DNA of 63,606 nt, counting the filler, from Hausera hauseri (Eukaryota): the NCBI GenBank assembly GCA_046269625.1. It is 11 parts of 11 records of this genome, joined end to end, with 100 filler letters (N's around TTAATTAATTAA, not from the genome) between each part and the next. Parts side by side here need not be neighbours in the genome. Positions count along the whole stretch, not along the records: positions 34,841 to 41,159 come from JBJURY010113876.1; 10 more parts are not named here. One strand, written 5' to 3'. A program made the position numbers and the translations under genes. Shown here piece by piece: positions 5,203-57,432 of this stretch (within the stretch, counting starts at the first letter, position 1; each line of letters starts with the position of its first letter). The notes under the pieces are model-generated. The model saw only the letters and a program-made list of their open reading frames with translations, ran no database searches and was not told the origin of the DNA.

Positions 5203-5222
5203 CAACAAATTGTTTTAGAACA

Positions 5223-8700: not shown

Positions 8701-8738
8701 AACGTGAGAGAAAAACTTCCTCAATAGTTACTAGACCG

Positions 8739-14747: not shown

Positions 14748-15287
14748 TTAATTGCAAGGTTTTCTTCCGAACTTCCAAATCAGAAGAGCCCAAAATTCGT
14801 AAAATGTCCATAACAAGACATCGAAGATCTTTTTCTTAGTTTTCTCGAAGTCATATTAAACAGTTTAGTACAATTAACTTAACGTTATTGTCACTTTCCT
14901 TTAAAATTAGATCAATATGACAAGTAGCGACAGCTTTAATAGCAGCGACAGCATATGTTAACGTAATTAGTGTACCAGCAGCTTCATATCTAACCGTCGG
15001 ACTGCTGGATTGTAGAAGATTGTATACACAATGAATGAACCTTCCGCGTTCTTGTGGATTTGAATGGCAGACTTTGTAAATCGGTTCAACAATAATCTAC
15101 TGTAAAATATCACCAATGAAATTTCTTGACTTGCATGAAGTAGCATCATAAAAGCATTTAGTTTACATGATGCATCTTGTTCTTGTTCACGAAATTTGTA
15201 AATTTTTTTAGGAGCATCGTGAATGAGAAAATTAAAATTCCTATACATTGCAAAAATAGCGAGCACGGCATTTCGTCTAACATGAAA
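14748..15287 (-). pseudogene. COPB1: Coatomer subunit beta fragment
   Basis: [11 protein letters not shown]...[14 protein letters not shown], then after a frameshift [53 protein letters not shown]. Confidence 0.92.
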
Positions 15288-25799: not shown

Positions 25800-28700
25800 A
25801 TCCACATGTTGACTCCCCCGGAGTATGCTCACCTTGTCGACTGGTGGGGGAGCTCGCCGGGATACGGTTTTGCTGTGAGTAACAGCCAAGCCGTGTCCTG
25901 GGGCGAAGAAGCTGCAACTGGTGTTAAACCAAGAATATGAATGAAGATAAAAGAAAAAATTGCCAGGAAATTCGGAAACCTGGTCCCGGCCCCTTGTCAT
26001 TTATGGAGAGAGGTGACGGGGGACGGAGCTCTCTAGAGCACATCACTCGATCTCTCCACCCACGACCCGAGACTCAATGCAGTCCATTAAGCGTCCTGTC
26101 CAACGAGGCGCGTCCTTCACATGGGGTGTTGTCTGGCCTTCTTGATGAAGGCCCCAATACTTCAGATAATCACCAGGACCGAAGACACTTCACCTATAAT
26201 GAAAGAGGTGCAAAAAGAGCGGCCTGGTCAGTGGAGGAAAAAAGTGAAATTTATTGGTGTGTCTTATACGCAAGACACAGAAAATTCCCAAAAAAAGGAA
26301 CCACGAACAGAGTACTAGAAATGATACTGAGAAGAGGTAAAATATGTAAGGAAAAGGTTGAAAGTACACCAGTGTGTAGATTTAGTAGTATAGCCACCAA
26401 TATTAAATTGGGTAAAACAAAGATAAGCAAGGAAGAAATAAAAAAAATTGAAAATGACGTTGAAGCTTATATGGAGGAATTAGAGTTAGATGAAGGTAAG
26501 AGTAAGCACGATAAAGATGAACAATCTTGGAGATGGTCATACGAAAGAAATTTATTTTTAATGGAATGTGTGTATGTGGGTGAATTTTTTAGTGAAAAGA
26601 TGCAACAAAATGAAACATGGAAATATTATTTGGAAAAAGAAAAAATAAAAGTGAATGATATTATGGAATTTTTCTTCCATAAACAATATAACAATATAGA
26701 TAGGAAAATTTTGATTGCGCTAAAGCAATGTATATTAAATTTTAAAAATGAAAAGAAAAGAAAAATAAGAAAGGAAAAAGATACATTACCTACACCTGAA
26801 GAATTAGACGAGATCAAGGGGAAAGCAAAAGAAAAAGTTGAGAAAACGGAAATATCAGCGACATTGATACAAGAGATAAAAAGAATAAAAGAAAAACAAT
26901 ATAAAACACAGAAGGGAAAAATAGGTATGGGAGCAAAACGTTATACAGAAAAAGAAGAAAGAACAAAAATACCGGAAAAAGAAGAAGAAATGGGTTTGGA
27001 AATGTATGTTCATGAAGAGCCACCCGTTCTAATTGGGGATCAGCATGAAGATCTGAATGAAACAGAGAGAGATTCAGAATCTATGGAGAGTACAGTGGAT
27101 GAGGAAGAAATGGACAGAATAGTCATGATGGAGGAGGAAAAGCATCAGGTACAAAATAGACAGGAGATTGAAACTGATGAGTGAATGTTAAGGAGAATAG
27201 CTAACTACCGAGCAGAAGACCTAATAATGGGTATGGAAAGGCGAAAAAGAATAAAGAAGATTAACAATTGGTTTGGAATGAATAAATACATTGGGCAAGT
27301 GAATAGAGTACTACTAAGAATTATTCCTGAAAATTGTGGACTAACTGAATTAAATAGGCTATATTATGCCTCAAGTAGAGCAGTGGAAGAAATGATGAAT
27401 GGAGGAATTTATCGAGAAAACATATCAAGAAAAAGAAAAGGAAAACAAAAATCACCATGGAAGATTAGGTTGGAAAGAAATATAGAAAATCTGCGTAGAG
27501 AAATATCACTGTTGACGATGTTTAGACAAGGACAAGTCATCAATGAGGAAAAGAGGAAGATAGCCCAGAGAATGATTAATAGAGAAAGAATTACAAGAGG
27601 GGATAAAATGATACACGCAATTGGAAGAAGGAAGTTATTATTAGCAGCAAAGGCAAAAAGACTGAGACATTATTTAAGAATAGAAATGGAGAGAAGACAA
27701 AATAAAATATTTAAAGAGGACCAGGGAAAGTTCTATAAAGAACTGAGGGGAAATCAGAAAATCATTGAGACAACCCCAAGAAAGGAAGAAGTCGAAAGAT
27801 TTTGGAGGGATATATATGAAGATGAAGTACAGCACAATCATGATGCCCAGTGGATTACAGATATAAAGAACAACCCAGGAAATAGAGAATGGATGGAAAT
27901 GCCGTGGAGAAGAATAGAGGAAGACGAAGTAAAGAAAATAGTAAGGAAGACTAATAACTGGAAAGCCCCTGGAGTGGACAAGGTGCAAAATGTGTGGTTG
28001 AAAAAGATAACGGTGCTTATTAAACTACTCACCGAGTGCTTTAACAGGATAATGGAAGGAAGAGAAGAAATGCCTGAATGGTTTACGAAAGGTGAAACTG
28101 TACTTATTTCAAAAAATGGAGATACTGAAGACCCAAGTAAGTACAGGCCAATAACCTGCCTTCCAACTATGTATAAAATGTTAACAGCTGTGCTCACACA
28201 AAGGGTAAATAGTCATCTTCAAAATAATAACATAATTAGTGAGGAACAAAAAGGAAATAGTTTGGAATCGCTGGGAACAAAAGAACAGTTATTAATAAAT
28301 AGGATGGTTTTAGAAAACAGCAGGAAAGCTCAGAAGAATCTGTGTATGACATGGATCGATTATAGAAAAGCTTATGATAGCGTACCTCACTCCTGGCTTA
28401 TAGAAATAATGAAAATATATAAAGTAAATGAAAAAGTCCGAAGGTTTTTTGAGAGAGCCATGCCAAATTGGAAGGTAAATCTTAAACTAATACATAAGGG
28501 AGGAATAATGAGAATAGAGAACATCAAAATAAAAAAAGGTATTTTTCAGGGGGATTCCATCTCCCCGTTGCTCTTTGTAATGGCCATTAATCCGCTGAGT
28601 GTACTTTTAAATGATCTGGGTAATGGATATAGGGTAAACTCCAGAAAAGAAAAAAAGCCAAAACAGATAACCCATCTCTTATACATGGATGATTTGAAAT

Positions 28701-30340
28701 TATATGCCCCAAATAAAGAAGAGACAGAAAAGCAAATAGAAATAGTCAAAAGGTTCTCAAGAGACATTCGAATGCAGTTTGGGTTGGATAAGTGTGCATT
28801 TGTAGAATTGAGGAAAGGAAGAAAAGTGCACTCGGAAAACATTCAAATTGAAGATACAGAAATAAAAGAACTCGAGGGGATAAATACCTACAAATACCTC
28901 GGCATAGAAGAATCGGAAAAAATAGAAAACGAAATTATGAAGAGAAAATTAAAGAATGAATTTGTAAAAAGACTAAAAATGGTTCTCAAGACGGAATTGA
29001 AACCAAAGAACAAGATAGAAGCAATAAGAACTCTGGCTGTACCGGTACTTACTTATAGCTTTGGGGTATTAGATTGGTATCAATTTGAAATTAATGAACT
29101 AGATACGCTAATTAGAAAGCTTCTACATGCCCATAAGATGATTTACAAAAACCAGTGTGTGGCAAGGATGTATATGCCCAGAGAAGAGGGGGGAATGGCA
29201 ATACCATTAATTGATGAGATTCATAAAAAAGAAATAATTGGAATATCTGAATATGTGAAAGGAAAAGGAACAAAATACATAAGATGGGTGAGAGACCACG
29301 AAGAAGAAAAACCATCAGTTACATCAATTAGAAAGAAAGCGGATGACTACTTGAGAAATATGGAATTTGAGGGTGCAGTGAACACTGAGGTTAGAGGAGA
29401 AGATTTAAAAAAGAGAATAACTATTATAAAGGAAAAATACAAGAAATATAGAAAATTAAAAAATGATCAAGAATGGAAACAACATAAACGTGCTGGACTT
29501 TTCAAACAGGAAGTATTGGAGAAGTCTTATATACACAAAGAAAAGACAATAGAGGCAATTAGTAAGGGGTATTTAAGGTTTGAAGATGAGAGAATGGTAC
29601 TGGCAGCTCAAGATAGAGGGTTGAGAACCAACTGGTCAAAGAAACATTTAGAAAAGAAAGGAGAGACAGACAGGTGCAGGCTGTGTGATAGTGAGGTTGA
29701 GACGGAGATTCACATATTGTCGGGGTGTGAGGTTCTGTTGAAGTTACATTTTTATACGGAGAGGCACAACTCGGTCTGCAAACTGTTACATTACAAACTC
29801 TGCAAAAGATATGAGATCCCACTTCAAACAAATAGTCATAAAAATCATCAAGCGCCATCAATAGTAGAAAATGAACTAGTACAGATATTATACGATTACC
29901 CCATACCTACAGGAGCGGTAGTACCTTGTAATAGACCGGATATAGTTGTAATCGATAAACAAAGCAATAAATGTTACATAATTGAGGTGGGAGTCCCGTA
30001 TGATGGAAAAGTGGCAATGTATGAGAGAGAGAAAGAGATAAAGTACCAACAATTAAAATATGAAATATTGAGGATGTGGCAAGTTGAGGAAGTGGTGGTC
30101 ATTGCGGTTGTTGTAGGGACACTGGGTACAGTAAAGAAAAGTGTAATAAAAAGTTTGAGTATGTTACCCTTCGAAGTAACAACAAAAGAAATAGTAATGG
30201 AAGTTCTTACGAAAAGTATCAAAATTCTGAGAAGAGTTTTGGGAGCATGAAATGACCTCAGCCTTTGAATCAAGGTTTGATTCCGGTTGAAGGAATTTTT
30301 ATGTACCTCTAAGTAGAGAAAATTAAAAAAAAAAAAAAAA
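25800..30340 (+). mobile_element. Near full-length RLE-type non-LTR retrotransposon (R4/Dong-like) with a poly(A) tail
   Basis: Structured 5' UTR, a single reading frame, a short 3' UTR and A16 at 30325-30340. Confidence 0.9.
25937..30250 (+). CDS. RT and restriction-like endonuclease polyprotein, with one in-frame TGA at 27182-27184
   Basis: WKAPGVD, YRPITCL, DYRKAYDSVPH, GIFQGDSISPLLF, HLLYMDDLKLY, YKYLG, CRLC...HILSGC, RHN, RPDIV, IIEV, EK..KY. ORFs 25937 and 27185 are in the same frame. Confidence 0.93.
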
Positions 30341-31589: not shown

Positions 31590-31985
31590 TTAGTGTCCCC
31601 TAGTACTTTATGCATTAGTTCTTAGAACGTGCCAGGGGCTGCTGCTATACCGAGTGGCATCCTGTTGAAACAGAATGTTCTAATTTGGTTGAAAACGCCG
31701 TCTTCGGTTTGAAGTCTTCCTCCAGCTGAACTGGTTAATATGTTTTCCCTATATCGATTGACGTGAAAAACATGGTCCCGTATAACCTGTCCAATATCTC
31801 CACCATGTTAGGCATGGGGAATGCCTGCCGTTCCGTGATAAGATTCAGGTGTCTGAAGTCCAGTCAGATTCTGAGATTGTTCTTTTCTTTCGTCCATACT
31901 CATATCATTGGTATATTCCATGCTGAGTTGCATTTCATGATAATGTCATTTTCCTACAGGTTTTGGATGGTGTTAGAACATTATC
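31590..31985 (-). pseudogene. Gypsy RT fragment
   Basis: LDFRHLN...AFPMPN..EILDRL, KTAFST, FNRMPLGIAAAPGTF. Confidence 0.85.
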
Positions 31986-32995
31986 ATAATATTTAAATGA
32001 TAGCATCGTGGATCGGAACCACGCTCTGCTACCATTTGTTGGAAATACATGACGTACTTTATTTAAAGAATCCGTTATGTCATTAATTTTATCACCCTGA
32101 ACGCTATCCTTGATCCCCCGTGTTCTTATATACACGGAACTATTAATTATAGACTTTCTCTTATTTTGTTCCTCCTTTGATATCATCTCAAATCTTGTCC
32201 CAGCTCCCATGAAACTCAGCCCCCAATCTTCCATAACCTTCCCAAAGCCCTTATTCAATATATAAAAATATAAAAAAACATTTAAATTAATTTTCTCACC
32301 ATACTTAGCCATTGTTGACGGAGTGCTGCTCTCCGGGGGATTCTCTCCACCATTAATTTGGCCTTGAACATACAAACGGATTTTATCAGTCATACATACA
32401 TCATGACCCCTGGCCGGGTCCATCAAACCAAAAAGGCAACAAAAGTAACTGATAACAATATTATTAACGTGACGCACAAATACCTTCTTAACATCACCAT
32501 TCTTTAAGTCCAGAATTATTGGAGTTGACTGTATTTCCTTGGAGTACTCTGAAATTTCTTCATAAACCCTTTTACTACACTCATACCAATATAATCGGTT
32601 ACAGTTATCCCCGATTGGTACTACCATGCTTCGATGGCTATACGTGACGAAAATAGGTTGACCATATTCGTCTTTCAATTTGACGATCAGCAGATTAATT
32701 GGAATAGTCAATAGCTCTTGACGTTGTTGGATAAATTCCACTGATTGAAAATGATACATTTGTTTTCGTAAATAGAACATTGGGACAGTTTTGATCGTCT
32801 ATATTTTTGAGGCCTCTCCTGGCCTGAATTTCGCAAACTTTTTGGTGAGGAGCCAGAGGCATGGCCCTCGAACTCGCCCGTATCTATTAATAGTTCATTT
32901 TCTTGAAATTTGTTTATATTCTTCATGAAATTCAGTTTCTTCGATTTCGTCCATAACAGGACATTTTGGTCAATCATTGAAATTTTCAATTCCAT
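31986..32995 (-). CDS. Orphan ORF of about 330 aa, apparently intronless, with one frameshift, running into the RT fragment
   Basis: ORFs 32708-32995 and 31935-32780; protein-like composition; no recognised family. Confidence 0.4.
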
Positions 32996-34840: not shown

Positions 34841-35704
34841 GATAGAAACCAGTAGTTGTTTACGTCCTCCACCAACGAGTACGGATTCGGTTAAGTCCGT
34901 TAAAATGTTTATTCTATGAAATGCTCCATAGAGTTGCGGTTTGCATTTGGCAATAGTAGATCTTCCATCAATGTTTTGATAGAAACAGTGTTTTGAAAAA
35001 TCCAGATTTCGAGCCAATAATTCATCAAAGGCAAAATACGTAACACTGACATGGCGTGTACGCGAAATATGAACATCTGCGTTTACTTCACATGTCCTTA
35101 AGACTAATGTAGCCGTTTTCTTGACGTATTCACACAATTCCAGTTCCGTTTCCATCAATGAATCGTAAGGTATAATATAATAGCGGATGACTGCTTCTGA
35201 CTTAGTCCACTTTACTATAATATCAGATTCCGCATCGGATAAAAGGTCCAATTTTTCACCAACTGTAACATGTTTACCTAGCCGTAGTCGTTTTTCGTGT
35301 ACATTGACTGATTGAAAACTCCGTGCATGAGCATCAGCTATAGATTTAAACTGCATTTCAATGGGATTTGGGTGTATTAGTTTCATACGGTAGTTTGAAA
35401 AATAAGCATAAACCGAGAAATTTTCTCGCGAATAATTGCAAAGTGTATATCGGTTATTGTGTCGGATAGCCCGCAAACCACTTGAAATAGGGTACGTTTC
35501 TTGTCGGGCAAAGTAAATACCACTGTTCTGACGTATTGTCACTGGTGACAATGTAAAAGTGCATTCCGTCAAAGCCACTTTCCAGACTACTTGGCGTAAA
35601 TCGACCGGGCGGTCCAAGTGCATGGTAAACTGTTGAGCTGTATTGTCATTAACGTCATGTAATAATGATCTATTACTATCAAGTACCAAGTAAATGCTGC
35701 TCAT
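34841..35704 (-). CDS. Polinton minor capsid (penton) protein, truncated by the contig end
   Basis: IYLVLDSN.S....DNT..QFT..L..PVDL...WKVALTE and INILTDL.E..LVG....LL. Its ATG overlaps the integrase stop (ATGA). Confidence 0.8.
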
Positions 35705-36751
35705 TGAATCTGTGATGCAAAAATCCAACTTGGTGCAGTGTATCCGTGCAACTTGACGACATATTGTTTATTCGAAACTTTGCCACGTAAACGTAGAATT
35801 TCCTGAATACGATACACATCGGGTTTTTCGGACAGTACCTGCAAAAACTTTCGTAGAATTTACCGCGTATTTAACGTAACATGACAGGTGTTTGTTTTGT
35901 GTTGATTGCCGAAATGCGGAAAACCTCGTCGTTCCAGTTCTGATTGAAATTTTTAATGAATAGAGTCGTACTTATTTTCGAAATACGTACATAATCACCA
36001 ATTTTATATTTTGGGCGTTTAATTGTCTGTATTCTGTTTTGATAAAGCCACATGTCCAAATCATCGATTACGTCAACTGGCCGTAATCCACTGATGCCAC
36101 GATGTGCCGAATGATTGTATGCATGAATAATATCCGACAGTACATCTCCCCAGCGTTTGTTGTTTTTCTTCGTAAAGAATTTGTTTAGGCGACCGCACAA
36201 TGTTCGATTAAGTCGTTTAATAAGTGCAGCATTTACTGTGAAAACACCGAGTAGTGATTTACGCCGAACCGTTTCAAAACCGCTGCAACGTGGGTGTTGT
36301 AGAATTCCTTACCGAAACTCGTTTGTAAATGCTTCGGTTGTTGTTGTTGTTGTTGTTGTTGTATCAGTGTCTGAACAGCGTCGGAAATCTCTTTACCGGA
36401 TTTAGATTTCACCGCAATTTCACGTGCAAAACGACTAAACACATCAACGCATGTCAACACGTACCGATACCCATCGTTAATGCTGGCGTACGGAATCACT
36501 TCCATCAGATCCATTTGCCATACATTATTTACTCCGGCAGCACGGTATGCACGAGTTGGGAACCGCCTTCTTATTGGTTTGTTTAGGCCGTATGCTAACT
36601 GTTTCCCGAGCCAACGTTGGGTCTGTTGCCGATTCTGTTTGACAGTCTTTGCCAGTTTGGTGACGCCCGTATACCCGACGGGATGACGCGGGCTGAATTA
36701 CACGTCGCCCATCGGTGTTGTCGTCGTCGATGGTGCCGGTTTTGCTAGCAT
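35701..36751 (-). pseudogene. Polinton retroviral-like integrase with a C-terminal chromodomain-like region
   Basis: WQMDL...NDGYRYVLTCVDVFSRFA, K.LQT..GKEFYN, YNHSAHRGI, YKIGDYVRISK, NWNDEVFRI, YVVK..GY. Confidence 0.92.
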
Positions 36752-36872
36752 TGAAACAATTAGAACGAAACGTAAATGAAAGATAGGGTAAACTTTGGCA
36801 AAATTATGAATAACATGCATCCATATCGCCGAATCACCATATACTTACTATTTTTTACTTACTATGTTTATA

Positions 36873-37199
36873 CTATGCTGCTGTAGAACCAATGAATCCG
36901 CCCAGTAATGACGTGACAATTGGTAGAATTGCACCAAGGAATCCGCCGTCTTGCTGGTACATAACCTCTCGTTTCTGTTGTTTACTACGGACGTTGGCAA
37001 GGCCAATGAGTCGTTTTCGGTACTTTAGTAAATTCCGCTTTCCAGTACCCATGCCAACGTGATTCACAACAATATTCTATAAAATTTTCATCAAATCATC
37101 TATGGCAAATTGTGGAAATGATCGCAGCATGTTTCGCTTATGTCTCGTAGGTGCCTTGAGCAAAGCAATAAAGTACGGTTAACTACATTTAAATCGCAT
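36873..37199 (-). pseudogene. Small Polinton/adintovirus core (X-like) protein
   Basis: Basic protein ending QQDGGFLGAILPIVTSLLGG (QxGGFL adenain-site-like motif plus an amphipathic helix). Confidence 0.7.
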
Positions 37200-37434
37200 G
37201 CTTTTTGGTGGACGTATTGATGTTGATGAGACGTAGTTGTTTATAACCTGTGCAACTGTGACTGTAATTTGCGTCTAGCTGCTGCTGTTGTTGTTCGACA
37301 AAGAACAAAATTGGTTAGTCGCTTTACTATAGCGGTGATTTGTTTTGATACACGCTTCTTGCCACCAGACACCTGCTTGGTAGTAGGTTTACGTTTAACA
37401 TCTGATTTTCGGAAATTCGTCATTTTTCATTATA

Positions 37435-38095
37435 ATCATGTCGTCGATTTTAGAATTTGTTTATAGATACATACCCGACCGTTCTAATTGAAAATGTTTA
37501 TTCGTACACGCATGTCATCGGGACACTGTTGAGTAAAGTCGATGAACAAGTATCCGTGTGGCTCAGTCGTAGCATCATGATATGCATTTATCAAGTAAGC
37601 TCGATTGTAAATAAATGCTTTTCGTGCAACATAATCAATGATAGTTTGATCACGGGGATTTTTGAACAACATCAAATAGTGTACGTTTAGATTTCGTGTT
37701 CGTTGCTGTCCACCCTAAAAAAACATGTTTTGCGTAATGAAAATAACCGTCACACCATGGTGCCGTGCAATCTTCGTGAACAGGTTGTTGAAGTCCGATT
37801 GTTTCGCGGCTTCTTGAAATAAATGGTCGATGACAATAACGTCACCGTTGCGTAATCTCTCTGACCAGTTCTCATCAAACCCATCAATTACCGTTATCGA
37901 TTTCAATTTATAAAATTCCCGATGTGTCAAACCGGACTCACCATCATCACCAACACCCTGATGTCAGTATATGTGATTGTACTGCGGTGAATGGAACATA
38001 TCATGGTAGTTCTGCAGCAATTTGCAAACAAAGTGCGTTTTGCCACTTCCACCGGGGACTACAATCTGGAAAATTGCATAATTCTTCAGCTTCAT
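37435..38095 (-). pseudogene. Polinton A32/FtsK-like packaging ATPase
   Basis: Walker A GGSGKT, Walker B VIVID, LFTKIARH..VTVIFITQN.F, LFKNPRD, PHGYLFID. Confidence 0.92.
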
Positions 38096-38179
38096 CTAAT
38101 AATAATACAACCTTTCCTCACCATCACATGATTTATTTATAATCATGTTACACACACATAAATAGCTATAGTATAAACA

Positions 38180-38700
38180 ATGTTTCCATAATGTTAGCTA
38201 ATATCAACTATCGCGGACATGTTGCCGAGTGTGACATTATTAGCCCACTACCTTTTAATCAATGGAAGCCGACGAAGTATGTTACACAAGTGTCCACCGG
38301 ACTTTACATGCATCGTATTTCAATCAGGAAAGTGTCGTATTATGGGTTGTCGCAAACCAATCACAGCTGACAGTAACAATAAACTACTGCCATCCGGAAT
38401 TGTCATTGACCGAATCCAATCAGTAGCGGTAACGACTCAGTTAGACTTCCATCACCACCTTCACCAAACAATCAATCTGTACAAATTAGCAATAGCCACT
38501 GAATGTACATATGAACCCGAACTGTTCCCTGCACTGAGATTGACATTGTTTTGCCAACGTTGTGTCAACGTGTTTAGTAGTGGAAAAATTGTTGTACTCC
38601 GTATTCGGACAATGGACTATAAACGGATTATTAATCCAATTAAATACCACATAAATATTTTAGTGAATCAAAATAATGTACTCTGCACAACAACAAATTA
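38180..38700 (+). CDS. TBP: TATA-binding-protein homolog (two TBP repeats), with a frameshift near the 5' end
   Basis: Repeat 1 TCIVFQSGKCRIMG; repeat 2 IQSV...INLYKLA...YEPELFPAL...VNVFSSGKIVV (cellular TBP: YEPELFPGL...LIFVSGKVV). Confidence 0.85.
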
Positions 38701-39551
38701 TAAATACCATTCCCAAGCTGATTCAGATATTATGGCCATGGAAGACGACGACAAAACGATTCTACTCAATGATGATAATGATGGTGGTTGTGAGAATGAT
38801 GAAAGTTCAGATTGGTCATGTTTGGCTACAAAAAGGACAATTCTAATATCAAATTCCTGGAAAGGAAAACAGACCCTTTCCAACAATTAGAAAAACCTTC
38901 TAATGGCGATTGTCTGCAGGGTGATTATGTTGTCCATTGTCTGGAAACGATAAAGGAACTTGCTCAGAAATCATCAGCAAAACCGACGTTAAAAAGGCAA
39001 AATGCAATGATTGTAATACGTAAACGAAAATCAAAACCGTCGCGCCAAACACAGACATTTTACCGAAACGAATTTTTTGCAAGTATGAAATGCATTTTCT
39101 GCCAAGGCACGTACTAATTTCATTGAATGATCCCGTGTAACTATGCACACCCAAGTACAGCTATAGTTTAAACCACTTTGTGTGAAAGTTTGGATAAACC
39201 TTCTGACGCTCTACATGAATTAAACGTGAATTTAAAGTTGAACGAAACGACCATGTAACAGAAATCTGTCGTTTTTCCGGCTCAGAAAATCAAATTGTTT
39301 GATTTTATCGGTCGCGAAATATATAATGTACCCAATGATGATTTAAAGTGTCGACTAAAAATTAAATTGCAAGGATACAAGGAAAAAGCTGGTATCAAAA
39401 GCCCGATTTGGCGTGTAGCTGAAGCACATTTTAACTATTAATAAATATTGTTGTTGTTGTTCCTATTTTGTTTTACCGTTCTTCTTCTTCTTTCATCAAT
39501 CCAATTAACGAGTATAAATAGACGTGTAATTTTAATATTGGTATTAGAATA

Positions 39552-40027
39552 ATGATAATGAATGATGTAAAGATTTTCTTAACGGACGAAAATGCCTTTG
39601 TACCGAGAGGTGTTACAGAAAACAGCGCAGGCCACGATGTGTTTTCCAATGTCCATACGACAATTTCGGACAGTACAATCAAATGCATAACGACCGGAAT
39701 TTCATTGGCGATTTCACCCGGTTACTACGGCCAACTTTTATCGAAACGCGGACCGGCAAAATTCGGATTGACGGTTGTGGGAGCGGTGGTGTCACTGATT
39801 CAGACTTTCGTGGTGAAATTAAGGTGTTGCTGGAAAACCAATCCGAAGAACCGAATGCTTTTTCGAAAGTCAGTGCAATCGCACAAATCGTTTTTCTTCG
39901 ATGTGAGGAGGCGGAATTCAGTGCAATGTCACCGGAACAATGGGGATTGTTTTGTGTCAATGAAACAACACGAAATGAACGTAAAGAATTCGGCTTTGGT
40001 GATATGGATAAAGCCACTTATGTTTAA
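39552..40027 (+). pseudogene. DUT: Trimeric dUTPase, frameshifted
   Basis: SAGHD, TGISLAISPGYYGQ, GGVTDSDFRGEIKVLL, IAQIV, R..K.FG. Confidence 0.9.
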
Positions 40028-40094: not shown

Positions 40095-40580
40095 ATGTGG
40101 ACAGGATTTATCGATATTGGGGCTTTCCAGGACAACAATGCTCAGTACATAATAAAGGAAACTGTGTATTATGGACGTGTGTAATATTTTCAAACTGCTT
40201 ATGTATGTATTCGAACCGAATGTTTCATGGATCGATTTAACAGAATCGGTAAAAATTACCAATGCGTTTCTCATACAACATCGCCAGAGACTTTATTAAT
40301 ACGAGGGCAACGCATACTTTTGCGCGTCATGTATCATGAGACATTCGAGATCGTTTTGACATTTCAAACACAATTTTTTTACGTTAAAGATCAAATAAAC
40401 GGTCAGACATTTACGCAATTATATTTCCAGTTTGCTGACTTGCGAATGACGACGTACTCAACCTCGATCGACTACTCAACAATGGTGATATCTGACAACA
40501 TTCAATGTCCGTATCGTGATCATGGACCGCATTGTGCCTATAGAAAATGTTTACAGCTTTGTTTAGACTGTTTCATGTAA
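40095..40580 (+). pseudogene. Small Polinton-type protein with a DEDD-like N-terminus and a Cys/His C-terminus
   Basis: FIDIGAF.....YIIKE and CPYRDHGPHCAYRKC. Confidence 0.45.
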
Positions 40581-40773: not shown

Positions 40774-41120
40774 TTGGCGTCAATAGCATTGATGACGACA
40801 ACAGATTGCGACTCGATAGGAATTTTAATTCTTGCGATATATCAAATGTGCATTCGGCAATTGTGTGAAACAGATTACTTTGATGCCATTGAAAATTTGC
40901 GTGACGAATTAAACAAAAACAACTTGAAAGAGAAAATAACGAACAAGGTACAAAACGGACAGTTTTTGTGTGTACTATGTAAAGAAAGAAAGGTGGGTAC
41001 AGCGTTACTAATATGTGGGCATGTTGTTATATGCCAAACTTGCTCTTCCAACGTAACACAATGTCAAGAATATAAATCCTCAATAATGGAAATTGTACAT
41101 ATTTTCTGTGAATTACTTTT
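40774..41120 (+). CDS. IAP-type RING finger protein, degenerate
   Basis: CVLCKERKV...LICGHVVICQTCSSNVTQC....I..IVHIF. Confidence 0.75.
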
Positions 41121-41259
41121 AATACGGACGGCGTCACCGCCGTTATTGACCGTTTGTCTNNNNNNNNNNNNNNNNNNNNNNNNNNNNNNNNNNNNNNNNN
41201 NNNTTAATTAATTAANNNNNNNNNNNNNNNNNNNNNNNNNNNNNNNNNNNNNNNNNNNN

Positions 41260-41705
41260 GTCTACCGAAATTTGTATTGGTAACATTTCAGACTAGTAGT
41301 AAAGTCAGTGGTGAATACACTTTATACTGTTCAGCACTTGATCACTGCAATATTAGTTTCCTAGTCTTGTCTCGAGGAATTGACTATAGGGATAGATATA
41401 GAGTAGACTTTGAAAAAAATAACTTTATTGAGGCATATTATCGGCCCATAATACTAAACATGGGATTTGTGAATAAAAATATGAATAATGGCATCACCAT
41501 GGATGAGTTCAAAGAAAAGCACCCCTTCTTTACATTTGTTCTAACACCTGACTTTGATGTTGATCAACCACAAATGCTACAAACAGGCAATTTGAAACTA
41601 GATTTAAGATTTCATAAGGCATTGGACAATGCAGTTACAATGTATGTATATGAAATTTTCGATAGTGAAATACAAATTCGCAAAGATGAACTAATTATTG
41701 CATAA
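41260..41705 (+). CDS. Polinton major capsid protein (double jelly-roll), C-terminus
   Basis: NNGITMDEF...FFTFVLTPD...GNLKLDLRF.KAL...VT.YVY..FDS.I.I. Confidence 0.85.
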
Positions 41706-41788
41706 ACAGTATTTGTAATTGATGTTGAATATTGATATGAAGTAAGTTTTTATATACTTGTATATTTTATACATGTAGTACATTTCAG

Positions 41789-42109
41789 AATGAAAATGCC
41801 TTGGTCAGACTCAACTATTTTCGTGGAGTATATCCATTGAATAAAGTCCCCGACTATCTGCTCAATGGAGGATATGGGATTAACACACATTGTGCTAATC
41901 TACCACAAGAACACTGGATAGCAGTATATGTATCACCAGATAATATTCAAGTGTTTGATCCACTTGAGATGTATTGCCCATCATCGCTGGTGACAAAATT
42001 GGAACGTATGCGACAACTCGTCATATACAATGATATTATGCATCAGAATCCATTGATATTTCTACGTGGGAATTATTGTGTGGACTGGCTTAGACGCCAA
42101 TGTACATAA
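41789..42109 (+). CDS. Adenain-like cysteine maturation protease; catalytic Cys apparently mutated
   Basis: FRGVYP, INT....P.EHWIAVY, FDP, HQ....LRGNYC (CG.YC expected). Confidence 0.82.
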   Translation, partial: NENALVRLNYFRGVYPLNKVPDYLLNGGYGINTHCANLPQEHWIAVYVSPDNIQVFDPLEMYCPSSLVTKLERMRQLVIYNDIMHQNPLIFLRGNYCVDWLRRQCT

Positions 42110-42619
42110 AATTGTTATAAACGTTGTTGTATTAATAAATGCTTTGTTGAAATAATATATGTCTTATTTATTTATTTGGGGGATTTGTAGATAATAATAA
42201 TGAATACATCATAAAAGAGCTATGTATAATGCCAGTGGATAATATGTTTTACCCACTACCCTATGTATTTGCGTAAGTGAATTTTAGTATAGTACATGTG
42301 ATTTATGCTATTTTATGCCTACACTGCATTGTCGCACAAACAAGGCTCAAGCAACAAGTGCTTATTTGACAAATTATACCAAAGAACATTACATGTATTT
42401 ATCGTGAACATGGTTCAAATTGTGCATAAAAAATGTTTAGCGTTATTTCAAAGTTATATTGTTACTAAATAAATGTGTTATGAAATTAGTTGGTCTTATC
42501 CTATATGGCAGTTACTTAATTTTACTTGGTCTTATCCTATATCCCACATTACTTGATCAAGAAGACAACACGATATTTCTATACAACATTTATTGAACAA
42601 AGAATAACAATATGTACGT

Positions 42620-45453
42620 TGTTACAATAATGCCACATGTCCATGAGGTAGTGTGTGGATTTTGTCTTCAAGAATGTGTCACTTCTCATCAAACTAATCA
42701 AGGCTTTTCTTCCGCAACGCAACCGTGACAATCTGATGTTCCCAGGACTGGATCCTTTTCATCTCGCTGATTATGTGATTTTGCTCCCGCAACACTGTCT
42801 CAAAATCTCCAAAGCAAATTTCTTTAGCTAATGTGGCCCTTTGAACTCCCTTGGCCCGCTTCTTTACTTGACCACTTACATCGATGGCGTACATTTTTTA
42901 TCTCAATGCCACGATACGGGTGATGATCTTCCCATTCACCTCATCTTTAAACTTCCCGAGGACCTTCTTGTTAGTAATTGAATAATTTAAATGATTCTTT
43001 GTATAGTCTGAGGTATCCATATACTGAGCCAATTTTTCATACTTTTCAAAGACATCATCTATGCGGATCTGGTATATGAAACTGTCCGTGTCCATGTACA
43101 TTAGCTGGATCTCCTTGAATGAGGGGACCATGATGTTGTAATGAAAGTCATGCATCAAGGTCTTATATATGGACATGCACACATATATAGGCTTGTTGAA
43201 TTCAAGAGATGTCATGAGCATATGGATGCTCACCAGATTCTCCGTGTAGATTGTGCTGCTGTGGAAGTTGGGCTTAGCGATGAGTATCTTTGCCCTCTTC
43301 CAGTTACATACCAGCTCAATGTTTATCCGGTTCCGGATGTTCTCCATAGTTTTGCCAAAGACCAAGTTGTTATAAAACTTGAATTGGTCCTTTTCAAACT
43401 CGTTCTTGGCATTGGCCCTCAATTGAGTATTGAGGTTTATGTATGAATTCAGCCATTTGGACTGGCTGAACTGCAGAGTCCGATAAATCTTGACGATTCC
43501 AAGTCCATTTTGGATGGCCTGTTGGAGATTGATGTAGTGGACTACATACCTCTCCCTGTTTTCCAGATGGCAAAGCAGCTTCGTATGCTTATCAGTTGGT
43601 GGCCTCTTGCTCTCCGGAAGAAATGGCAGCTGCTCATGCCTTGTGTGAATGTTATGTGGGTATTGCACACCCACCTCCAGTATATAGCTCGTATCTCCAG
43701 TTGGATCTAGGTCCAATATTGGGATGTCTTCAGGATTCTCGACCCATTTGAAGTTATCATAGGGCAATGGGTTGCTCATTGCCCATCCCTACAAGTTGTT
43801 GGCATCCAGATATGATATATGTGAGGATTCATTTGATGGTCATAATCTGCTATGTATTTGTTGTTGGTCTCACTGTACCTGTGAATGGCCTGGCATATTT
43901 CACCCTTGATGCCTCTCTCAACCATAACGACTATATTGTAATCACTCAATATCTGAAGCCTTATGCCGGCATAGCGCAGCATCGCCGCACAGTTCATTCC
44001 TGGAGCTGTAAAAAATGGGCTGGATCTAACTTGTGGCTCTTAAGGGTCACATCCCTGAAGCTTTCGAAAACATCTGTAAGTAGCAGCACATCTGTGAGGA
44101 GATAGATATCATTGTATTCCCCTATTGTCATACACTGGAAGGTTTGCCATACCCTTTGGACATGCTCATAGTCAGCATCGCTAATATGACTGGATGACAA
44201 CTAACTATAAAAGTCCTCCTTGACCGGTAATGCTTCTTTATCCAGTGTTTCCCATGACGTTATATAGTCATAGGGGAACACGTCTTTCCTCTTGACGAGG
44301 TCAAATGCAGTGGGAAAGAACCGCTTTGTCTCCTTGAGTTTTTGTGCAGGGAGGTTCTTCAGTAAACTATCCAGTGAATAGCTCATGAAGCGGAAGCTGT
44401 CTATGAATCGAAGTCTAATGCGACCCACATGCTTGGTGAAAGTGATGTATTTTTCCTCACTATTGGGAATGACATCAATGTTCCCCTCAATATTATCCAG
44501 TTCCCAAACAATGAAGTGAAAATCATAACCACTGAGATTGGGGAACACTACATGCACATATGTGCATGTTTTGCAACGTAGATGGCAGTTGTTGCATGCT
44601 GCACCTGGACATGTGCCTGTAAAATGGCAATGATCCTTGACTTTATAACTATCCTTGGTGAATGACTTGTCGCACAAGTAACATGTTGTTGCCTTGCGCC
44701 ATTTATCTTCTTGCTGCTTTGACATGTTTATTGTATCCTTATGTGGCTAAAGCATGTTTTCAAGCCTATGAGCCATGTCTTCTAATATCTTCATAAAATG
44801 CGCTGCTGCGTCTGGCCCTCTGAATAGAAATGGTTCATTGTCCAGTCCTTTGGCAAAAATACAATACGATGATAATTCATGATATTGGTGTGCTGTTGTG
44901 CTGCTATGTTGGGGATTCGGGCTGCAGCTGTGAATTAGGCTAAGGATGGCTTCAAAATTGCAATAAACAACAATCGGCACATTCTACATCTTCTCGAACT
45001 CCTTGAATTCCAGGTAATTCTCCTTGGGGAATTCTTCTTGGATGCAATAGTTTGTATTACAGTAGGTCTTGTGCCCTTCCAGCTTTTCTGTGGCAGTGTC
45101 CCCATTAAAATGGGTAAAGCATCTCTTACATATTATCAGCCTTGATTTATGCTTGGATATTTGGGATCCTACGAGGCGGTCAAAATTCTTGATCCAGATG
45201 AAATGCCTCTTTTCTCCATCATCTAGCAGGAGCAGATCCCTATAATTCTCCAATTCCTCCTTGCACACATGTAGTAGATAAAATTTGTCCTCCTCCTATC
45301 CGAATACGTTAATTGAGATGTTGTTTCCGCTTTCAAATTTCACGACTTCATCTAGGCCCGGTAAAAATAAAATACAGCTGAAGTCGTATGTGTGCTGCAC
45401 TTTGTCATATATCCAAACTCGGAAAGCATTATGTTGGTCCTGGACTAGTTTTG
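42620..45453 (-). pseudogene. Protein-primed family B DNA polymerase with an endonuclease VII-like domain
   Basis: HFIWIKNFDRL, CYLC...VKDHCHFTG...GAACNNC, NLSGYD, FIDSFRFM, FPYDY, YLLTDVLLL.DVFE.FR, NN.VFGKTMEN.R, YMDTDS, LGKFKDE. Confidence 0.95.
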
Positions 45454-46349
45454 NNNNNNNNNNNNNNNNNNNNNNNNNNNNNNNNNNNNNNNNNNNNTTA
45501 ATTAATTAANNNNNNNNNNNNNNNNNNNNNNNNNNNNNNNNNNNNNNNNNNNNTCAGATTTGGAATATTACTTTAAAAATTTAATTCGGTAATTTTAATT
45601 AAATTTTTACATTACTCCAAATTATAATCTCAATTTAAATTTAAAATTGTATCTGATTTAAATTCAGAACTTCTGTTATCAATTATATCCTCACAAGACA
45701 CATACGCTACTACCTTTTCTACATTTCCTATTTGTTAGCTTAGTGTGGTGCTCACATCAGTCGAAGAGAAAAAGCAGTTATATATGGGTGCAATTTAATT
45801 TTATTTAAATATACTGGATTATTTTTAGTTGCATGAAATATTTTTTGTAATATATTGCAAATTTCTGTATTTGTGTAATGCGTTGTATCTCAACCGTAGA
45901 TTTTATATTTTGCTTTAAACGAAATGGTGTCTTAACTTTTCGTACGTAATGATTTTTGTGTTGACAAATTGCAGGATTCAAGGAATATCAACAATGAACA
46001 TCAGTAACATAATAAAAACACCAGCCAGACGCATACTGCTTCGCCAATTTCGGCGTTGGGAAATATATTTCAACTCCATCGTAACCCATCACTAATATTT
46101 AAAGTTAATGGTGGTTAGATTACTGCAATACCGAGTTCCCCGAAGAATAATTCAACTCAAGAGCAGTCAAATACCCAACTTAACACATTCAAAAATGTAC
46201 CTTCTTAATCATATCAGAATTCTCAATCAAACCAATCATCAAACTCATCATCAAAATCTTTTAATCAACTCATTCAAGATCCCATTTAACATATCAAGCT
46301 CAACAGGAAACTATCTTAGATAACTATTAAATACAATTTTCTTTTGAAT

Positions 46350-48231
46350 ACAATGAAAAAATTGTTATATGATGTAAAAACAATGTTGAGTCGTCTCTAC
46401 TAGCTCTTGGGATTTCACAAAGAACCAATAAAGTAAAACTCAATCAACTCAAACATGTAAACTGCCCTTCTTTCATATCAGATGGAGTCGTTCCTATGAT
46501 AAACCAACCTACTGTGAGTACTGCTCCCATTGCACAAAATGATGCGTCTGTATCCAAAATAAAATTTTTCACGGGATCAATGAAGGTTAATACTGGTGCG
46601 TCACATAGCTTCAATTTTAAATGTTACCAATGACCACACACACTTTTGGAAATAATGGATCTCTCTTACTTTTAGTTGATTTGCTGACACTCCATGATTA
46701 TTAATTGTATGCCCGAGAAATATCAACTCCCATCCATCGAATTTACATTTTTGGGATTCACTTTTAGATTTGCATTTTCCAACCTTTTTATCACCTCTTG
46801 TAGTAATCTGTGATGTAAAAATCAGCACGTCACAAATATATGACAACACCCGCAAACTGTAAGTCTCCTAACGGTGTATTCGTCAGTCACAGAAAAATTC
46901 CCGTTGCCCTTGAGAGGTCAAATGGTATTCGACTGAAACAATATTGCTGTGATTTTGTGCAAAAGGACGTTTTGTCTTGGAAGTTTTCATTCAATGCGAC
47001 TTGGTGATATGCTTTACCGAGGTCTACATTTGAGAAAATACTTGAACCGCCTAACGTATCAAATAAGAGTAGTAGGAAAGAAACGCACTGCCCCAATATA
47101 AATTTCCTATCTCGAAGACCCCTCCCATGAAGGGAAAATTTTCTTTCCCGGATGAATCATAGTAGGATAAGAAAATTGGCCAATGGGAAACAAGATATGA
47201 CTCCCCCCAGTTTGGGATAAAAGCTTCCTGTGCCTTGGTGTGTCTTGGTGTGCCTTTGTGATAGTGCGTTGTCTTATCCAGTGAAGAATTGATATCAGTA
47301 TTCTGCTTAATGACATCTGCGTCTAATCCGGGAAAATCGGTAATCGAATTAGACTGAGAGTTATTAAACGTTATCGGTCCGATTGAATTATCCTGATGGC
47401 TCGTACCTTGATATGGTATAGTTGAAATGATCTCAGACTTAAGCGAATCGACAAAATACGAAGTAGATAACCGAGATTCCAAAAGATTAGTTTGATTTGA
47501 ATTAAGTACAAATGCACTGTAAGTGCTTCTGTTGGGCAGGAGTGAATTGAGATCAGTCATTTCCACAATCGGTGGAGTTGAGAGTTCATCACAAACATTG
47601 TTGGAAATTGATCTTAGATAAGGTTGAAGATCTTCTCCGATTAATTCGGGTACGAATGACATGTAACTTGTTGGAAGATTCAGAATACCAAAAAATGTCT
47701 TTTCTTGAGGTATCAAGGACACATTATTTGTCGCTTGATTATTAGCTTGAGAATAAATTATGTTACCATAAGGCTCATACTGACTAGACCTTCTAGTTTT
47801 GCAATAGTCAATTCGTTTAGAAAAAGTTAGTGCGTCATCATCGTCATCAAATTCCAAAAAAAATGAATGCACACCAAAATTACCAATTTTCTACGTTTCA
47901 CTTTCAATTAAAACTCGATGTGTGCCAAGACGATACGAATTAATCCAATTTAAATCGAATTTCACGTGCAATGTTTCGCCGCTTTTAATTGCTATGCACA
48001 GAATAAACTCGTGAGGTAAAATATCAATTTTGAGATCAAGATTATCAATAACTAAATCGAAAAGTTTGGAACCCTCATTCTATCTTAACAAAACAACGTC
48101 TTCAAAACACTAGGCCATCAATTAAAATGGTAAATCCAATATCATTAAAAAATCAAAATCCGCATTCTGTATTTTATATTCAAACAACCACAATATTTTT
48201 ACATTAGTAATTTCACATATAGTTCACCAAT
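46350..48231 (-). mobile_element. Highly decayed, internally deleted Gypsy element
   Basis: DLGKAYHQV, KTSF, F.RIPF, FILDTDAS. A PBS-like TGGTGAAC follows ...CACA at about 48230. Confidence 0.7.
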
Positions 48232-48251
48232 TGTGTGAATGTGGGCACCAT

Positions 48252-48392
48252 AGCCTTGCTTTGGCTTTGTGTGCCTTGGCTTTGCTTGGTGTGGCTAGGT
48301 GTGCCTTAGTTTAGCTTTGTTTGGATTGGTTTATCTTGGTGTGGCTAGTGTTTAGCTTTGTTTGGCTGGGTTTGTCTTAGTGTAGCTTGGGT
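48252..48392 (+). repeat. Degenerate 10-bp tandem repeat (GTGTGSCTWG-like), probably inside an LTR; a short copy lies at 47230-47260
   Basis: GTGTGCCTTG GCTTTGCTTG GTGTGGCTAG GTGTGCCTTA GTTTAGCTTT GTTTGGATTG... Confidence 0.7.
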
Positions 48393-48649
48393 TTCCCTAT
48401 TTCCACTTTAGGGATCAAGTGCTTTTAGGTGCATTTATGTTTCCCTCCCATAGATTACCTTTATATGTATATTGTTTTCTTAATGTGTGATTATGTAGTA
48501 GTATGTTCAAACATAATGCTGTATCTGGTGTGGAAAATAACGGAAATTGAACGTATTTACTAAAAGGCTTAACTAAAAAAACAACAATACAGATTAAAAC
48601 TTTTATTAATAAAACATACAAATAAATCGAAATATTTACAATTAAATAC

Positions 48650-49769
48650 AATAATGTCCGTAAGCAACTGATTTGATTTTCTAAATCCACTGCCGTTTGT
48701 CGTCGAATAGATCCAATGCTTTGTTTTTTGTGCTGATCGATATAAGTTAATAGTTTTTAGTCCCGATTCGTTCCTGGTATACCATGGTCCCACAACCGCA
48801 TTCATAAGCGTGTAAATAGCTGTCGAATTGCAAGTCCGTCTGCTTGAGATTTATGCACTTGCATTTGAGAACTGGTTTGCATTGAGTTTTGAGAGCATAA
48901 GATTTTGGCCGTAGAAAAATCCCCTCTTCATACTGAACGCAGTCCTCACTTTCGTCTTTAAATTTCCCAATTACAGCTGCGAAGCGAGTCGAGTATAGAG
49001 GATCACTCTTGTCGTAGTTCGATGTATTTAGCTGTTCATTATCTATCATTGCTGCTAACAGATTTGATTTTAAGTCAACACCGCGACACTCAAGAAATAA
49101 ACTGTCAGTGTCACCAGTAAGAACATTAAGTTATCAATTAAACTGGTGCCTATAAGTCTCCAACTCGATATAATTCAGCTCATACATCCGTAACTTGGAC
49201 AGATCAAGTACGGCCTGACCGATGTATGAGGGCCTATCTAAGGTGACTATGTCTTTATCGAGGAGAACGGCAACCATATCATCGGCTATAATAATTCTCT
49301 CTTTAAAATGGGCCTTACTAGCATACGTAATTAGCTTTTCAGGATTATTAGACAGTCTCAGGTTTGACCTATTAAGCAAATTCTCTACTGTTTTGCCGTA
49401 TAAGCTGTTGCTCTTAAGCTTATAAAGTCTTTTTCAAAAGGATTATTTGCTGCAACCCTTTTAGCAGTATTAAGATTGATGTAATATTTGAAGACATAAC
49501 CCTGGTCAAACTCAATGGCCCGATGTACCTTCTCAACTACAGCACCTAACTCGACGTATAACTGTACGAGCTAATAGTGAACAACATATTTGGACTTTCG
49601 CTCGTGTCAGCAAGAGTTTTTTTACTTTTGAACCAGGAGGACATTTATTAATTGGTGCAAGAGGCAGTTGGTCCAACTTATCATGTTTGTCAGCTGGAAT
49701 GCTTAAGTCAACTTCAAAGACTAAGCCTCGTTTTTCCTTAACACAGTCAATGTAAGGTAATTGTTGGAT
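48650..49769 (-). pseudogene. Second, divergent Polinton protein-primed DNA polymerase (C-terminal part)
   Basis: YKLKSNSLYGKTVEN, GDTDSLF, IGKFKDE, FLRPKSY. Confidence 0.9.
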
Positions 49770-55537: not shown

Positions 55538-56160
55538 ATCGTTGATGGATTATGTTTACCGCAACCATTCTTTTCCTCTAAAAATCCGTTAACAACCTAA
55601 TGACATATGTAAAGGATCCTAGATGACCTCTTGTGGAATTGCAGGAACTCATGTCACAAATATCTGTTCGAATACCTACGAATGTTGAACGAAACATAAA
55701 GCAACAAATGTCTGTATATGTAAGCAATGTTACGTCGGTGTTGTCACAGTTTTCCAGTGCTAAAATCATGCAAATACTCATGTCATATGATAATAGACTT
55801 AACAATAAATCCGATCGAGATAGTTAAGTGATGATCATACAAAGCTTAGTGTCTCTTGTTGGAAAGTATTCGTTCGGTGTTAGAGGTCACATGAAATCCG
55901 TGGTTGAAAATCTATTTAATAATTACTTTAACGTTGAGATGGAGTTCCAAGTAGGACACTTTGACAAATGTGTCAGTAGGCTTCTGGAACAGTTTTCCAA
56001 GGACAAGAATCTGACAGTAATGAATATCATCTTTTCTCATCAGCATGGCCAGTTAAAAAACAAACTAATTCTACTGTTGATTGATCATCTTGTTCAAAAC
56101 GAATCTGGTCTTGTCAAAGGTCTAAGTAATACGACGGTAAATTATACTAATCTCAATAAA
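55538..56160 (+). pseudogene. ACC: Acetyl-CoA carboxylase central-domain fragment, apparently intronless
   Basis: DP..PLVELQELMS.IS.RIP.NVE..IK, SNVTSVLSQF, GVRGHMKSVV, FQ.GHFDKCV, IFSH....KN.L...LID.L. Confidence 0.9.
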
Positions 56161-57219
56161 CCAGGACTTCTTAAAACCTATATATCCGCCATTTTAAGGT
56201 TACTGCCTTCAGATATGAAAAATCTGAGGTTATTGATTTAACCCCACTTTTGAGTATTTAACTTGACAAGGTTATGAAAATCACACTCTATCAGATCCTG
56301 ATGAGTACCATACAAAAATTTTCAAAACGGCGATTTAAGATCATTCAAACACTTCTTAGTTTTGTCCGTAAGGACATGCCCGAAGCGCAGGACGTATGGG
56401 ATAGTGTTATTTATCTCATTTCTTTTATTTTTTATGATTCCGTCAAAAATCCGTTTATGATTCCGCCATAGATTTTTGAAATACAACTGCTATCTAGCGA
56501 ATGCGTTTTTTGGTAACACATCTTGCTCTTATTCTGGCATGACTTCTGCTGACGTTGGAATTCTAGATCATACCAGCAAAACACCTTTTTTTTATTCCTC
56601 AGACCATAAATTTCGTATATTCCATTTCACAGTTGTTTCACTTTAGCCCCTGACTACGACATAGTCTTCCGAGATATCTTACTACTGTTGATAAAGTTAA
56701 TCAGCCTCCTTCGAAATTTAAATTGGCTTCATTGGGGAAAATTGGTAAACTACGCTTTTCCGTTCTGAAGTATTTTACACTCGTAGGAAGTCGTGAACTC
56801 AATGATGGCCACATAGAAATTAATGAAATGGCCCAGTCATTTTGTGGCATTGTTAATTGCACATCACCCGTACCTTGTCTCGACAAACCGAAAAACTCAA
56901 CACCGAACCATCTGCGAAATTCGATAAATCTGTAATGAGACGAAGGGGAATTAAGGCCCTCTTTCGCAAACTCAGCCCGATTTACTCTTCTGATCACAGA
57001 GAGTTTCGGACTAGAATTTCTGACTATGGACAGAATCAGTTCCCTTCTGGTTATTGCCGACTTTATTCAGTATACATCAGTTATAAACGCAATAGATCCA
57101 ATAACCATAGGTAGTCCACAGATTGGACATATTCTTCAAAAGAAACTGCAACCCTTTTAACTTCGAATGACCACATCGATGTACCACACTACCCGGTTTA
57201 CCGTATATCACCACCATTT

Positions 57220-57432
57220 TCCCTCTACCTTTATGTTAATAACAATCTAATACAAATAGTACACGTCACACAACGTATCGAGACATCACAACTATACTCT
57301 TTCATTCATAATACCCCCGCCTTCAGCGAATTCTACTTGACTCACAATGGCTTCATTTTAACTGACCTTCCACACATCATGTCTTCACAATCCTACCTAT
57401 GTATTCATATCCATCCTAGAATCCGTGGAGGT
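57220..57432 (+). CDS. Divergent ubiquitin-like domain in frame immediately before Gag
   Basis: 71 aa: SLYLYVN...IQIVHV...TSQLYSFIH...FYLTHNGFILTD...IHIHPRIRGG, followed by M. Confidence 0.6.

Follow-up and report, generated by a model that had tools for sequence, protein, structure and literature searches.

Adintoviruses, Polintons and Mavericks are described as sharing an ATPase, an integrase, a capsid, a protease and pPolB (PMC8502044). In the available text of that source, adintovirus virion genes appear to be animal-restricted, and a TATA-binding protein (TBP) is named once, as a label in the Fig. 5 legend for MELD virus (Starrett et al. 2021); that text is silent on any TBP family, mechanism or promoter motif. 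Neither TBP nor TATA was found in the available portions of vertebrate, nematode and structural surveys (PMC8097293, 10.1101/2023.08.22.554363, PMC11161782), the first of which reports that no particles of vertebrate Mavericks have been observed. TBPs of other viruses are better known. Two-lobe TBPs are encoded by Nucleocytoviricota and mirusviruses, and beta- and gamma-herpesviruses encode TBP mimics (KSHV ORF24, EBV BcRF1) with a TBP fold, kept Phe residues and a polar DNA face (PMC12529657), features that recur in the protein described here. A viral TBP for late genes is a known kind of system; in Polintons it is uncharacterised according to our literature search, which lay outside subscription journals and Repbase and found no published description of the family or the motif reported below.

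The TBP-like gene and its contig

The window, that is, the whole stretch of Hausera hauseri DNA analysed here (1-63606), consists of 11 short contigs without relation to each other, and between them stand N44-TTAATTAATTAA-N44 linkers, across which there is no linkage. The host is probably an animal, judging from the apparent restriction of adintovirus virion genes noted above. The TBP-like gene lies on the contig at 34841-41159 (6,319 bp), which has the following features:

34841..35704, minus strand: probable minor capsid (penton-like) gene, truncated by the contig end (E 7e-7 to the post-integrase ORF of L012)
35704..36712, minus strand: retrovirus-like integrase in three frames (Pfam rve, 3.5e-12)
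36865..36872, minus strand: TATAAACA, upstream of the integrase region, with ATGs 32-56 nt further
36888..37199, minus strand: pX/GasderminX-like virion gene, broken (37% to L012/L034 ORFs, E 1e-22)
37238..37245, minus strand: TATAAACA, 46 nt upstream of the ATG of the pX/GasderminX-like gene
37457..38095, minus strand: packaging ATPase (A32/FtsK type), divergent from the TBP gene, with stops inside (65% to the intact L012 ATPase; P-loop visible)
37458..37465, minus strand: TATAAACA, 35-42 nt upstream of ATGs of a small basic ORF
38096..38190, both strands: bidirectional promoter gap between the TBP gene and the ATPase
38191..38704, plus strand: TBP-like gene, short subtype, with a frameshift around 38273-38290 (Pfam TBP; tblastn with the intact P0001)
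38732..39438, plus strand: decayed acidic ORF and weak pieces of a small conserved gene (tblastn E 0.001-0.007)
39513..40024, plus strand: canonical TATAAATA, then a dUTPase gene in two frames
40116..40577, plus strand: conserved Polinton accessory gene (Maelstrom-like), broken (E 3e-9 to ORFs of L023, L058 and L069)
40792..41157, plus strand: RING-finger ORF near the contig end (Pfam zf-C3HC4_3, 2.6e-8)

Maelstrom-like is a presumed label for the accessory gene at 40116..40577; like GasderminX, Cupiennin and penton, it was assigned from gene order, PMC8502044 and general background rather than from search matches. The minor capsid label at 34841..35704 is probable and comes from gene position in relatives. 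The intact L012 ATPase matches Pox_A32 below the curated cutoff.

A preliminary description of this DNA had proposed a two-repeat TBP homolog without introns, starting about 90 bp from the packaging ATPase in the divergent direction and within one contig, and this held well. Both repeats are present, no intron appears in the alignment with P0001 (an intact relative of 160 aa), and the two starts are 95 nt apart, the ATPase running from 38095 on the opposite strand; three contigs of run X1 cross this gap in one piece. The dUTPase and RING genes are likewise confirmed by Pfam matches. The frame at 38198-38887 matches Pfam TBP at E 1.5e-12 and PDB TBPs at E 1e-8. P0001 aligns by tblastn in two frames, 38191-38289 (73%) and 38273-38704 (67%), which puts the gene start at the ATG at 38191 and a frameshift near 38273-38290; the ATG at 38180 opens only three codons. 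The reading frame is thus not open, a point that the preliminary description had missed.

The neighbouring genes are broken as well, including the ATPase (stops, several pieces), the integrase (three frames) and the dUTPase (two frames). In two public runs, 38,117 and 1,744 contigs match the stretch, mostly 90-99% alike, covering 30 of 30 and 29 of 30 bins, and some of them differ from the window at the break. Judged by these matches, we read the window as one decayed copy of a high-copy family, and it is very unlikely that the window copy makes the protein. Integrase and packaging ATPase of Polinton/adintovirus type are both present on the TBP contig, both broken; pPolB, the major capsid protein and the protease are absent from its 6.3 kb and occur on other window contigs, which need not belong to the same element, as well as in TBP-bearing relatives (L012, L023, L058, L063 and L069). 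No terminal inverted repeats or target-site duplication were found on the TBP contig, which ends inside genes.

Other parts of the window hold further mobile DNA. A second Polinton fragment (41260-45453) carries the end of a major capsid gene, a protease and a convergent broken pPolB, with YATAAAC at 41701 and 42116; it need not belong with the TBP contig. The third (45554-49769) has a different PolB piece at 48645-49757, a 279-aa ORF without a label at 47054-47890 and a 10-bp tandem repeat near 48253-48409. On the contig at 30464-34740, a 34-nt direct repeat lies near both ends (30464 and 34570), and the ORFs carry no assignment, the one at 31938-32798 having no Pfam match. There are also pieces of LTR/non-LTR retroelements (278-1578, 4435-9683, 17000-18367, 19316-21934, 25937-30250 and 57379-61616) and host-like fragments of Peptidase M49 (14970-16079) and acetyl-CoA carboxylase (55831-56238).

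A TBP family carried by Polintons

With the unbroken 3' piece as query, 144 relatives were obtained among 149 candidates, mostly of 145-170 aa and at least 120 of them listed; among the matches listed, intact relatives are 68-69% identical to this piece. Our alignment comprises 109 of 120 listed relatives, 11 short ones being left out, and a profile built from it matched 72 clusters (50% identity) at E < 1e-30 and 842 clusters, cellular TBPs included, at E < 1e-10. Metagenome contigs yielded 364 candidate stretches, of which 170 could be confirmed; the best 80 of these 170 served as loci. A Polinton core gene accompanies the TBP-like gene in 39 of these best 80 loci, some queries having been derived from the loci themselves, and in 35 of the best 80 with window-derived queries alone. 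The share rises with contig size, from 3 of 29 below 2 kb to 16 of 28 at 2-4 kb, 10 of 13 at 4-6 kb and 10 of 10 above. In IMG/VR, a core gene was found in none of 16 TBP loci; the search there gave no family member, one giant-virus-type TBP only, and no animal Polinton ATPase or capsid, and the phage set contained none either. Scans of single proteins for reference TBPs gave no match. Archaeal-type TBPs unrelated to the Polinton family were seen on IMG/VR contigs (L162, L163, L165-L167, L170 and L174), three rows of which group with support of 100/99 in the careful tree described below.

The preliminary description had considered that a terminal inverted repeat might separate the ATPase from the TBP gene. 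None was found between them, and in relatives the TBP gene lies inside the element: in L058 and L063 it sits in the PolB-ATPase interval, in L012 and L023 upstream of the ATPase, in L028 and L034 after the protease, and in some relatives between protease and PolB. By a pattern test, the two gene ends share a frame in 70 of 80 loci; the remaining loci are mostly truncated at a contig end or deviate from the pattern. The median dN/dS of 0.17, from 48 non-independent pairs, indicates purifying selection on the family, and TBP identity varies together with ATPase identity (rho 0.86, 22 loci), an association largely driven by two groups. Going by these sequence comparisons, the window gene is a broken copy of a TBP-like gene that many Polintons carry intact.

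Long TBPs pair with PLA2X-type virion modules (L058, L060-L063, L067, L069, L071, L072, L074 and L079) and short TBPs with Cupiennin-type modules (L012, L023, L028, L034, L037 and L038); L028 was mis-sorted by the subtype pattern and groups with L034 in the quick tree. Other cargo includes genes for a ubiquitin-conjugating enzyme, a dual-specificity phosphatase, KilA-N/DUF3627 and C2H2 zinc fingers (L023:225-719, L006:4008-4316, L058:7136-7993 and L080). A small conserved gene flanks TBP in many relatives and stands beside short-type TBPs in L012 (1502-2135), L001, L002, L005, L006, L011, L017, L018, L025 and L026. GT...AG-like stretches upstream of it suggest a spliced two-exon gene. Its Atlas look-alikes, a lead only, are giant-virus hypothetical proteins, some with Pox_I3, which points weakly to a possible viral ssDNA-binding protein. 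It has no convincing PDB match and no Pfam family, and its candidacy as a viral TFIIB was dropped.

For phylogenetic analysis, 99 rows were aligned, of which 80 entered a quick tree and 54 a careful mixture-model tree; TRF2/TBPL1 was not included. The family forms one clade in the careful tree (27 rows, 100/100, stem 1.7), within which the short subtype and the window piece form a clade of their own (100/99), and seven cellular eukaryotic rows group separately (92/90). The nearest outside rows, P0198 and P0447, are weakly placed, and rows tagged 'vir' come from protein searches, their genomic context not being known. In AU tests (36 rows), whose groups were chosen after the trees had been inspected, union of the window piece with animal TBP was rejected (p=6e-77), and the whole family was narrowly rejected with animal TBP (0.047) and with insect TRF (0.033).

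These results bear on a rival origin of the gene, as a recent retrocopy of host TBP/TRF, a possibility raised at the outset, or as a passenger that diverged by decay. The broken window copy would suit such an origin, as would a tree without TRF2/TBPL1. Against it stand the intact relatives with their low dN/dS, the single long-stem clade outside cellular TBP/TRF, the AU result for the window piece, and an invariant Phe at N-lobe F116 (N.L5.1), where TBPL1 carries Trp (PMC7221094), although the tree held no TRF2 sequence. We consider this explanation extremely improbable, and a recent retrocopy origin is excluded on the sequence comparisons; an ancient capture of the viral TBP from a eukaryote may have occurred.

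The DNA- and TFIIB-contact residues, which the preliminary description had singled out, give a mixed picture of three of four Phe and both Glu kept and a rewired DNA face. The family proteins are 145-180 aa long, and the structure model of the intact P0001 has the two-lobe saddle fold. Phe at L5.1 of each lobe (yeast F116 and F207) is invariant in 109 rows and present in the window piece. The intercalating Phe that is lost is F99, whose position is mostly P/K/R in either register, with an aromatic residue in no more than 21 of 116 short members and no more than 3 of 63 long ones. The TFIIB-binding C-lobe glutamates E186/E188 are found in 97%/98% of the 116 short and 80%/100% of the 63 long members. 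Changes on the DNA face (V71N, V122R, T124M, N159S/T, I194R, V203C and L205N) include all three positions that alter yeast TBP specificity; I194R occurs in only 52% of long members, although the motif described below stays constant. The short subtype is without both N-lobe helices (about 10 and 11 residues fewer), so that the P0001 model has no helix at residues 12-27 or 51-60 and just a three-residue turn after; the second loss, a segment about 11 aa shorter, is that of helix H2 with its basic patch.

Two promoter-like classes upstream of TBP genes and virion genes

DNA upstream of homology-labelled genes was examined in the dereplicated TBP-bearing loci (L001-L079) with automatic ATG choice. 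ATAAAC lies 8-90 nt, mostly 30-60 nt, upstream of the ATG in 90 of 110 genes, compared with 7.5 in shuffles and one in antisense; these motif counts are not independent, because many loci come from few datasets. By gene, it precedes the ATPase in 24 of 24 cases, pX in 13 of 13, MCP in 10 of 10, PLA2X in 10 of 11, the Maelstrom-like gene in 17 of 22, the penton-like gene in 7 of 11, the integrase in 5 of 8, the protease in 3 of 5 and the Cupiennin-like gene in 1 of 6. Outside this count, it also precedes 1 of 2 PolB genes. The consensus of the virion-gene element is YATAAACR. Of the 94 sites separated from the ATG by 24 nt or more, all keep a distance of 29 nt or more, and 75 fall within 29-62 nt; sites nearer than 24 nt, additional or sole, occur in 12 genes. 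TBP genes, in contrast, have ATAAAC at chance level (3/52) and a canonical TATA in 29 of 52 (8.5 expected), with an initiator-like TCA 30-32 nt downstream of it in 21 of 36 spacings. At the position following YATAAA, C stands in 74 of 83 virion-gene sites and in 0 of 19 TBP-gene sites. Of the 129 YATAAAC sites in 12 longer elements, 57 are followed by an ORF start, compared with 5-14% of the sites of six look-alike words. As controls, the motif is found at 7 of 162 ORFs in other viral TBP loci and at 0 of 29 ORFs on the non-Polinton contigs of the window. Two promoter-like classes are present: TATA plus initiator upstream of TBP genes, and YATAAACR upstream of virion genes. The counts cover TBP-bearing elements only, and the motif might be shared by Polintons at large, with no relation to the viral TBP.

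Two other identities for the motif were rejected as unlikely. It does not behave as a poly(A) signal, the preceding base being T or C in 95 of 98 cases and AATAAA not being enriched, nor as a forkhead site, as it occurs on one strand only, GTAAAC is not enriched (3/110) and G is tolerated at the last base.

In the window, TATAAACA occurs on the virion strand at 37465, 37245 and 36872, three copies being reached in 0 of 200 shuffles; YATAAAC in the window alone is not above chance (3 vs 1.1; 30 of 200 shuffles reach 3). The ATPase site, on the minus strand about 45 nt upstream of the ATG, is imperfect in the window copy, a decay that was predicted and agrees with the full motif in nearly all other copies from both runs. 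The TATAAA hexamers reported ahead of the TBP, dUTPase and RING genes do exist, at 38172, 39513 and 40603, but they are weak evidence with 14 TATAAA on the contig and 104 in the whole window (80 by shuffling). No ATG follows the one at 40603 within 75 nt, and the one at 38172 reads TATAAAC and lies only 19 nt upstream of the TBP ATG; a TATA-like site is found on the plus strand about 34 nt upstream of that ATG. The canonical boxes are likely to be host-TBP (early) promoters, and the informative sites are those on the opposite strand, upstream of virion-module genes, which the original list did not contain.

In the mechanism that we think probable from these sequence patterns, the viral TBP, made early, would recognise YATAAACR as a late promoter and work through host TFIIB and Pol II. 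Host TBP would transcribe the viral TBP gene early. The rewired saddle would then accept C at position 7 of the box, a base that is avoided there in host TATA boxes, so that virion genes would be selected, and an intact family member is predicted to bind YATAAACR better than TATAAAAG. Host TFIIB is the proposed partner because a search of 60 hand-picked ORFs from incomplete elements gave no match to a viral TFIIB; the kept C-lobe glutamates would bind it, and the viral TBP would bring host TFIIB and Pol II to the virion genes. Loss of the N-lobe helices would free the protein from TFIIA, TAF1, Mot1 and NC2. Redirection of host Pol II to the element's own promoters, as the preliminary description suggested, would fit the evidence. 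The TATAAAC only 19 nt upstream of the TBP ATG, which is seen in the window's family, speaks against a clean early/late split. The genes that lack the motif (5 of 6 Cupiennin-like, 4 of 11 penton-like, 3 of 8 integrase and 2 of 5 protease genes), its occurrence at a PolB gene and the incomplete conservation of I194R count against this mechanism as well.

Alternatively, YATAAACR could be a late promoter of ancient standing in Polintons that host TBP or some other factor recognises, the viral TBP being accessory, for example in TFIIB sequestering or host-promoter blocking. We take the C(-25) of described TATA variants to be position 7. Since wild-type TBP can bind the C(-25) variant (PDB 1QN3 title), with a Hoogsteen pair in the bound complex (PMC8643651), a host factor could read the motif. 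Many Polintons may also lack TBP and yet express capsids, given that TBP has no occurrence in the available text of the three surveys cited at the beginning, and a decoy too would need the TFIIB glutamates. On the other hand, a site read by host TBP would not be expected to have become fixed for the very base avoided in TATA boxes, C at position 7 being omitted from the degenerate eukaryotic consensus YWTAWADN (PMC1935006), and a decoy has no need of invariant new polar residues on the DNA face. We consider this explanation unlikely. Less credible still, and in our view doubtful at best, is a general, regulation-proof replacement TBP serving all element promoters, canonical and variant, with no temporal switch. 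It agrees with the loss of the basic N-lobe helix, the docking site of Mot1, NC2, TAF1 and TFIIA (PMC7221094), with the three kept Phe and with a motif that differs from TATA at one or two positions only, but it leaves unexplained both the split of promoter type by gene class and the TATA-initiator spacing of TBP genes.

Comparison with known systems

The preferred reading, in which the viral TBP reads YATAAACR, has a wider form, for which we see the chances as even: a large part of animal Polintons would run a herpesvirus-like early/late cascade with a single re-specified TBP of 150 residues, a private C7 TATA box and host TFIIB. If true, the TBP-motif pair would be older than the divergence between the two adintovirus virion modules and would represent a natural orthogonal TBP-promoter pair and sequence evidence for a timed virion programme in these 'transposons'. 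A conserved, strand-specific virion-gene motif together with an element-encoded TBP variant can be tested with one small protein and an 8-bp site, and the family is a natural experiment on which TBP surfaces are dispensable and by what route C at position 7 comes to be accepted.

Compared with cellular TBP/TRF (Pfam PF00352), the Polinton TBP is 21-26% identical, has lost F99 and is carried by a mobile element; the site of canonical TBP is TATAWAWR. The PLA2X-type and Cupiennin/GasderminX-type virion modules of the adintoviruses in PMC8502044 both occur among TBP-bearing elements. The best BFVD matches in Foldseek are giant-virus TBPs (E 7e-8, 17% identity). However, almost all viruses surveyed in the available part of PMC7221094 also encode TFIIB, unlike the Polinton ORFs searched; C.L3.2 is conserved in about 40% of the viral TBPs surveyed there, whereas the Polinton TBP keeps E186/E188, and the TBP-bearing Polinton genome is just ~15-20 kb, unlike those of giant viruses. 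The herpesvirus mimics act at late promoters with host Pol II (PMC12529657), as is proposed for the Polinton TBP, and V122, T124, V161 and L205 are changed in both. Their late motif differs from YATAAACR. KSHV ORF24 has 752 aa and acts in a viral Pol II-binding complex, and a section heading of the same source calls its model incompatible with TFIIB, whereas the Polinton protein, of the much smaller size given above, retains the TFIIB glutamates. With a Foldseek match of E 6e-3 only, a separate origin of the Polinton TBP from the herpesvirus mimics is likely.
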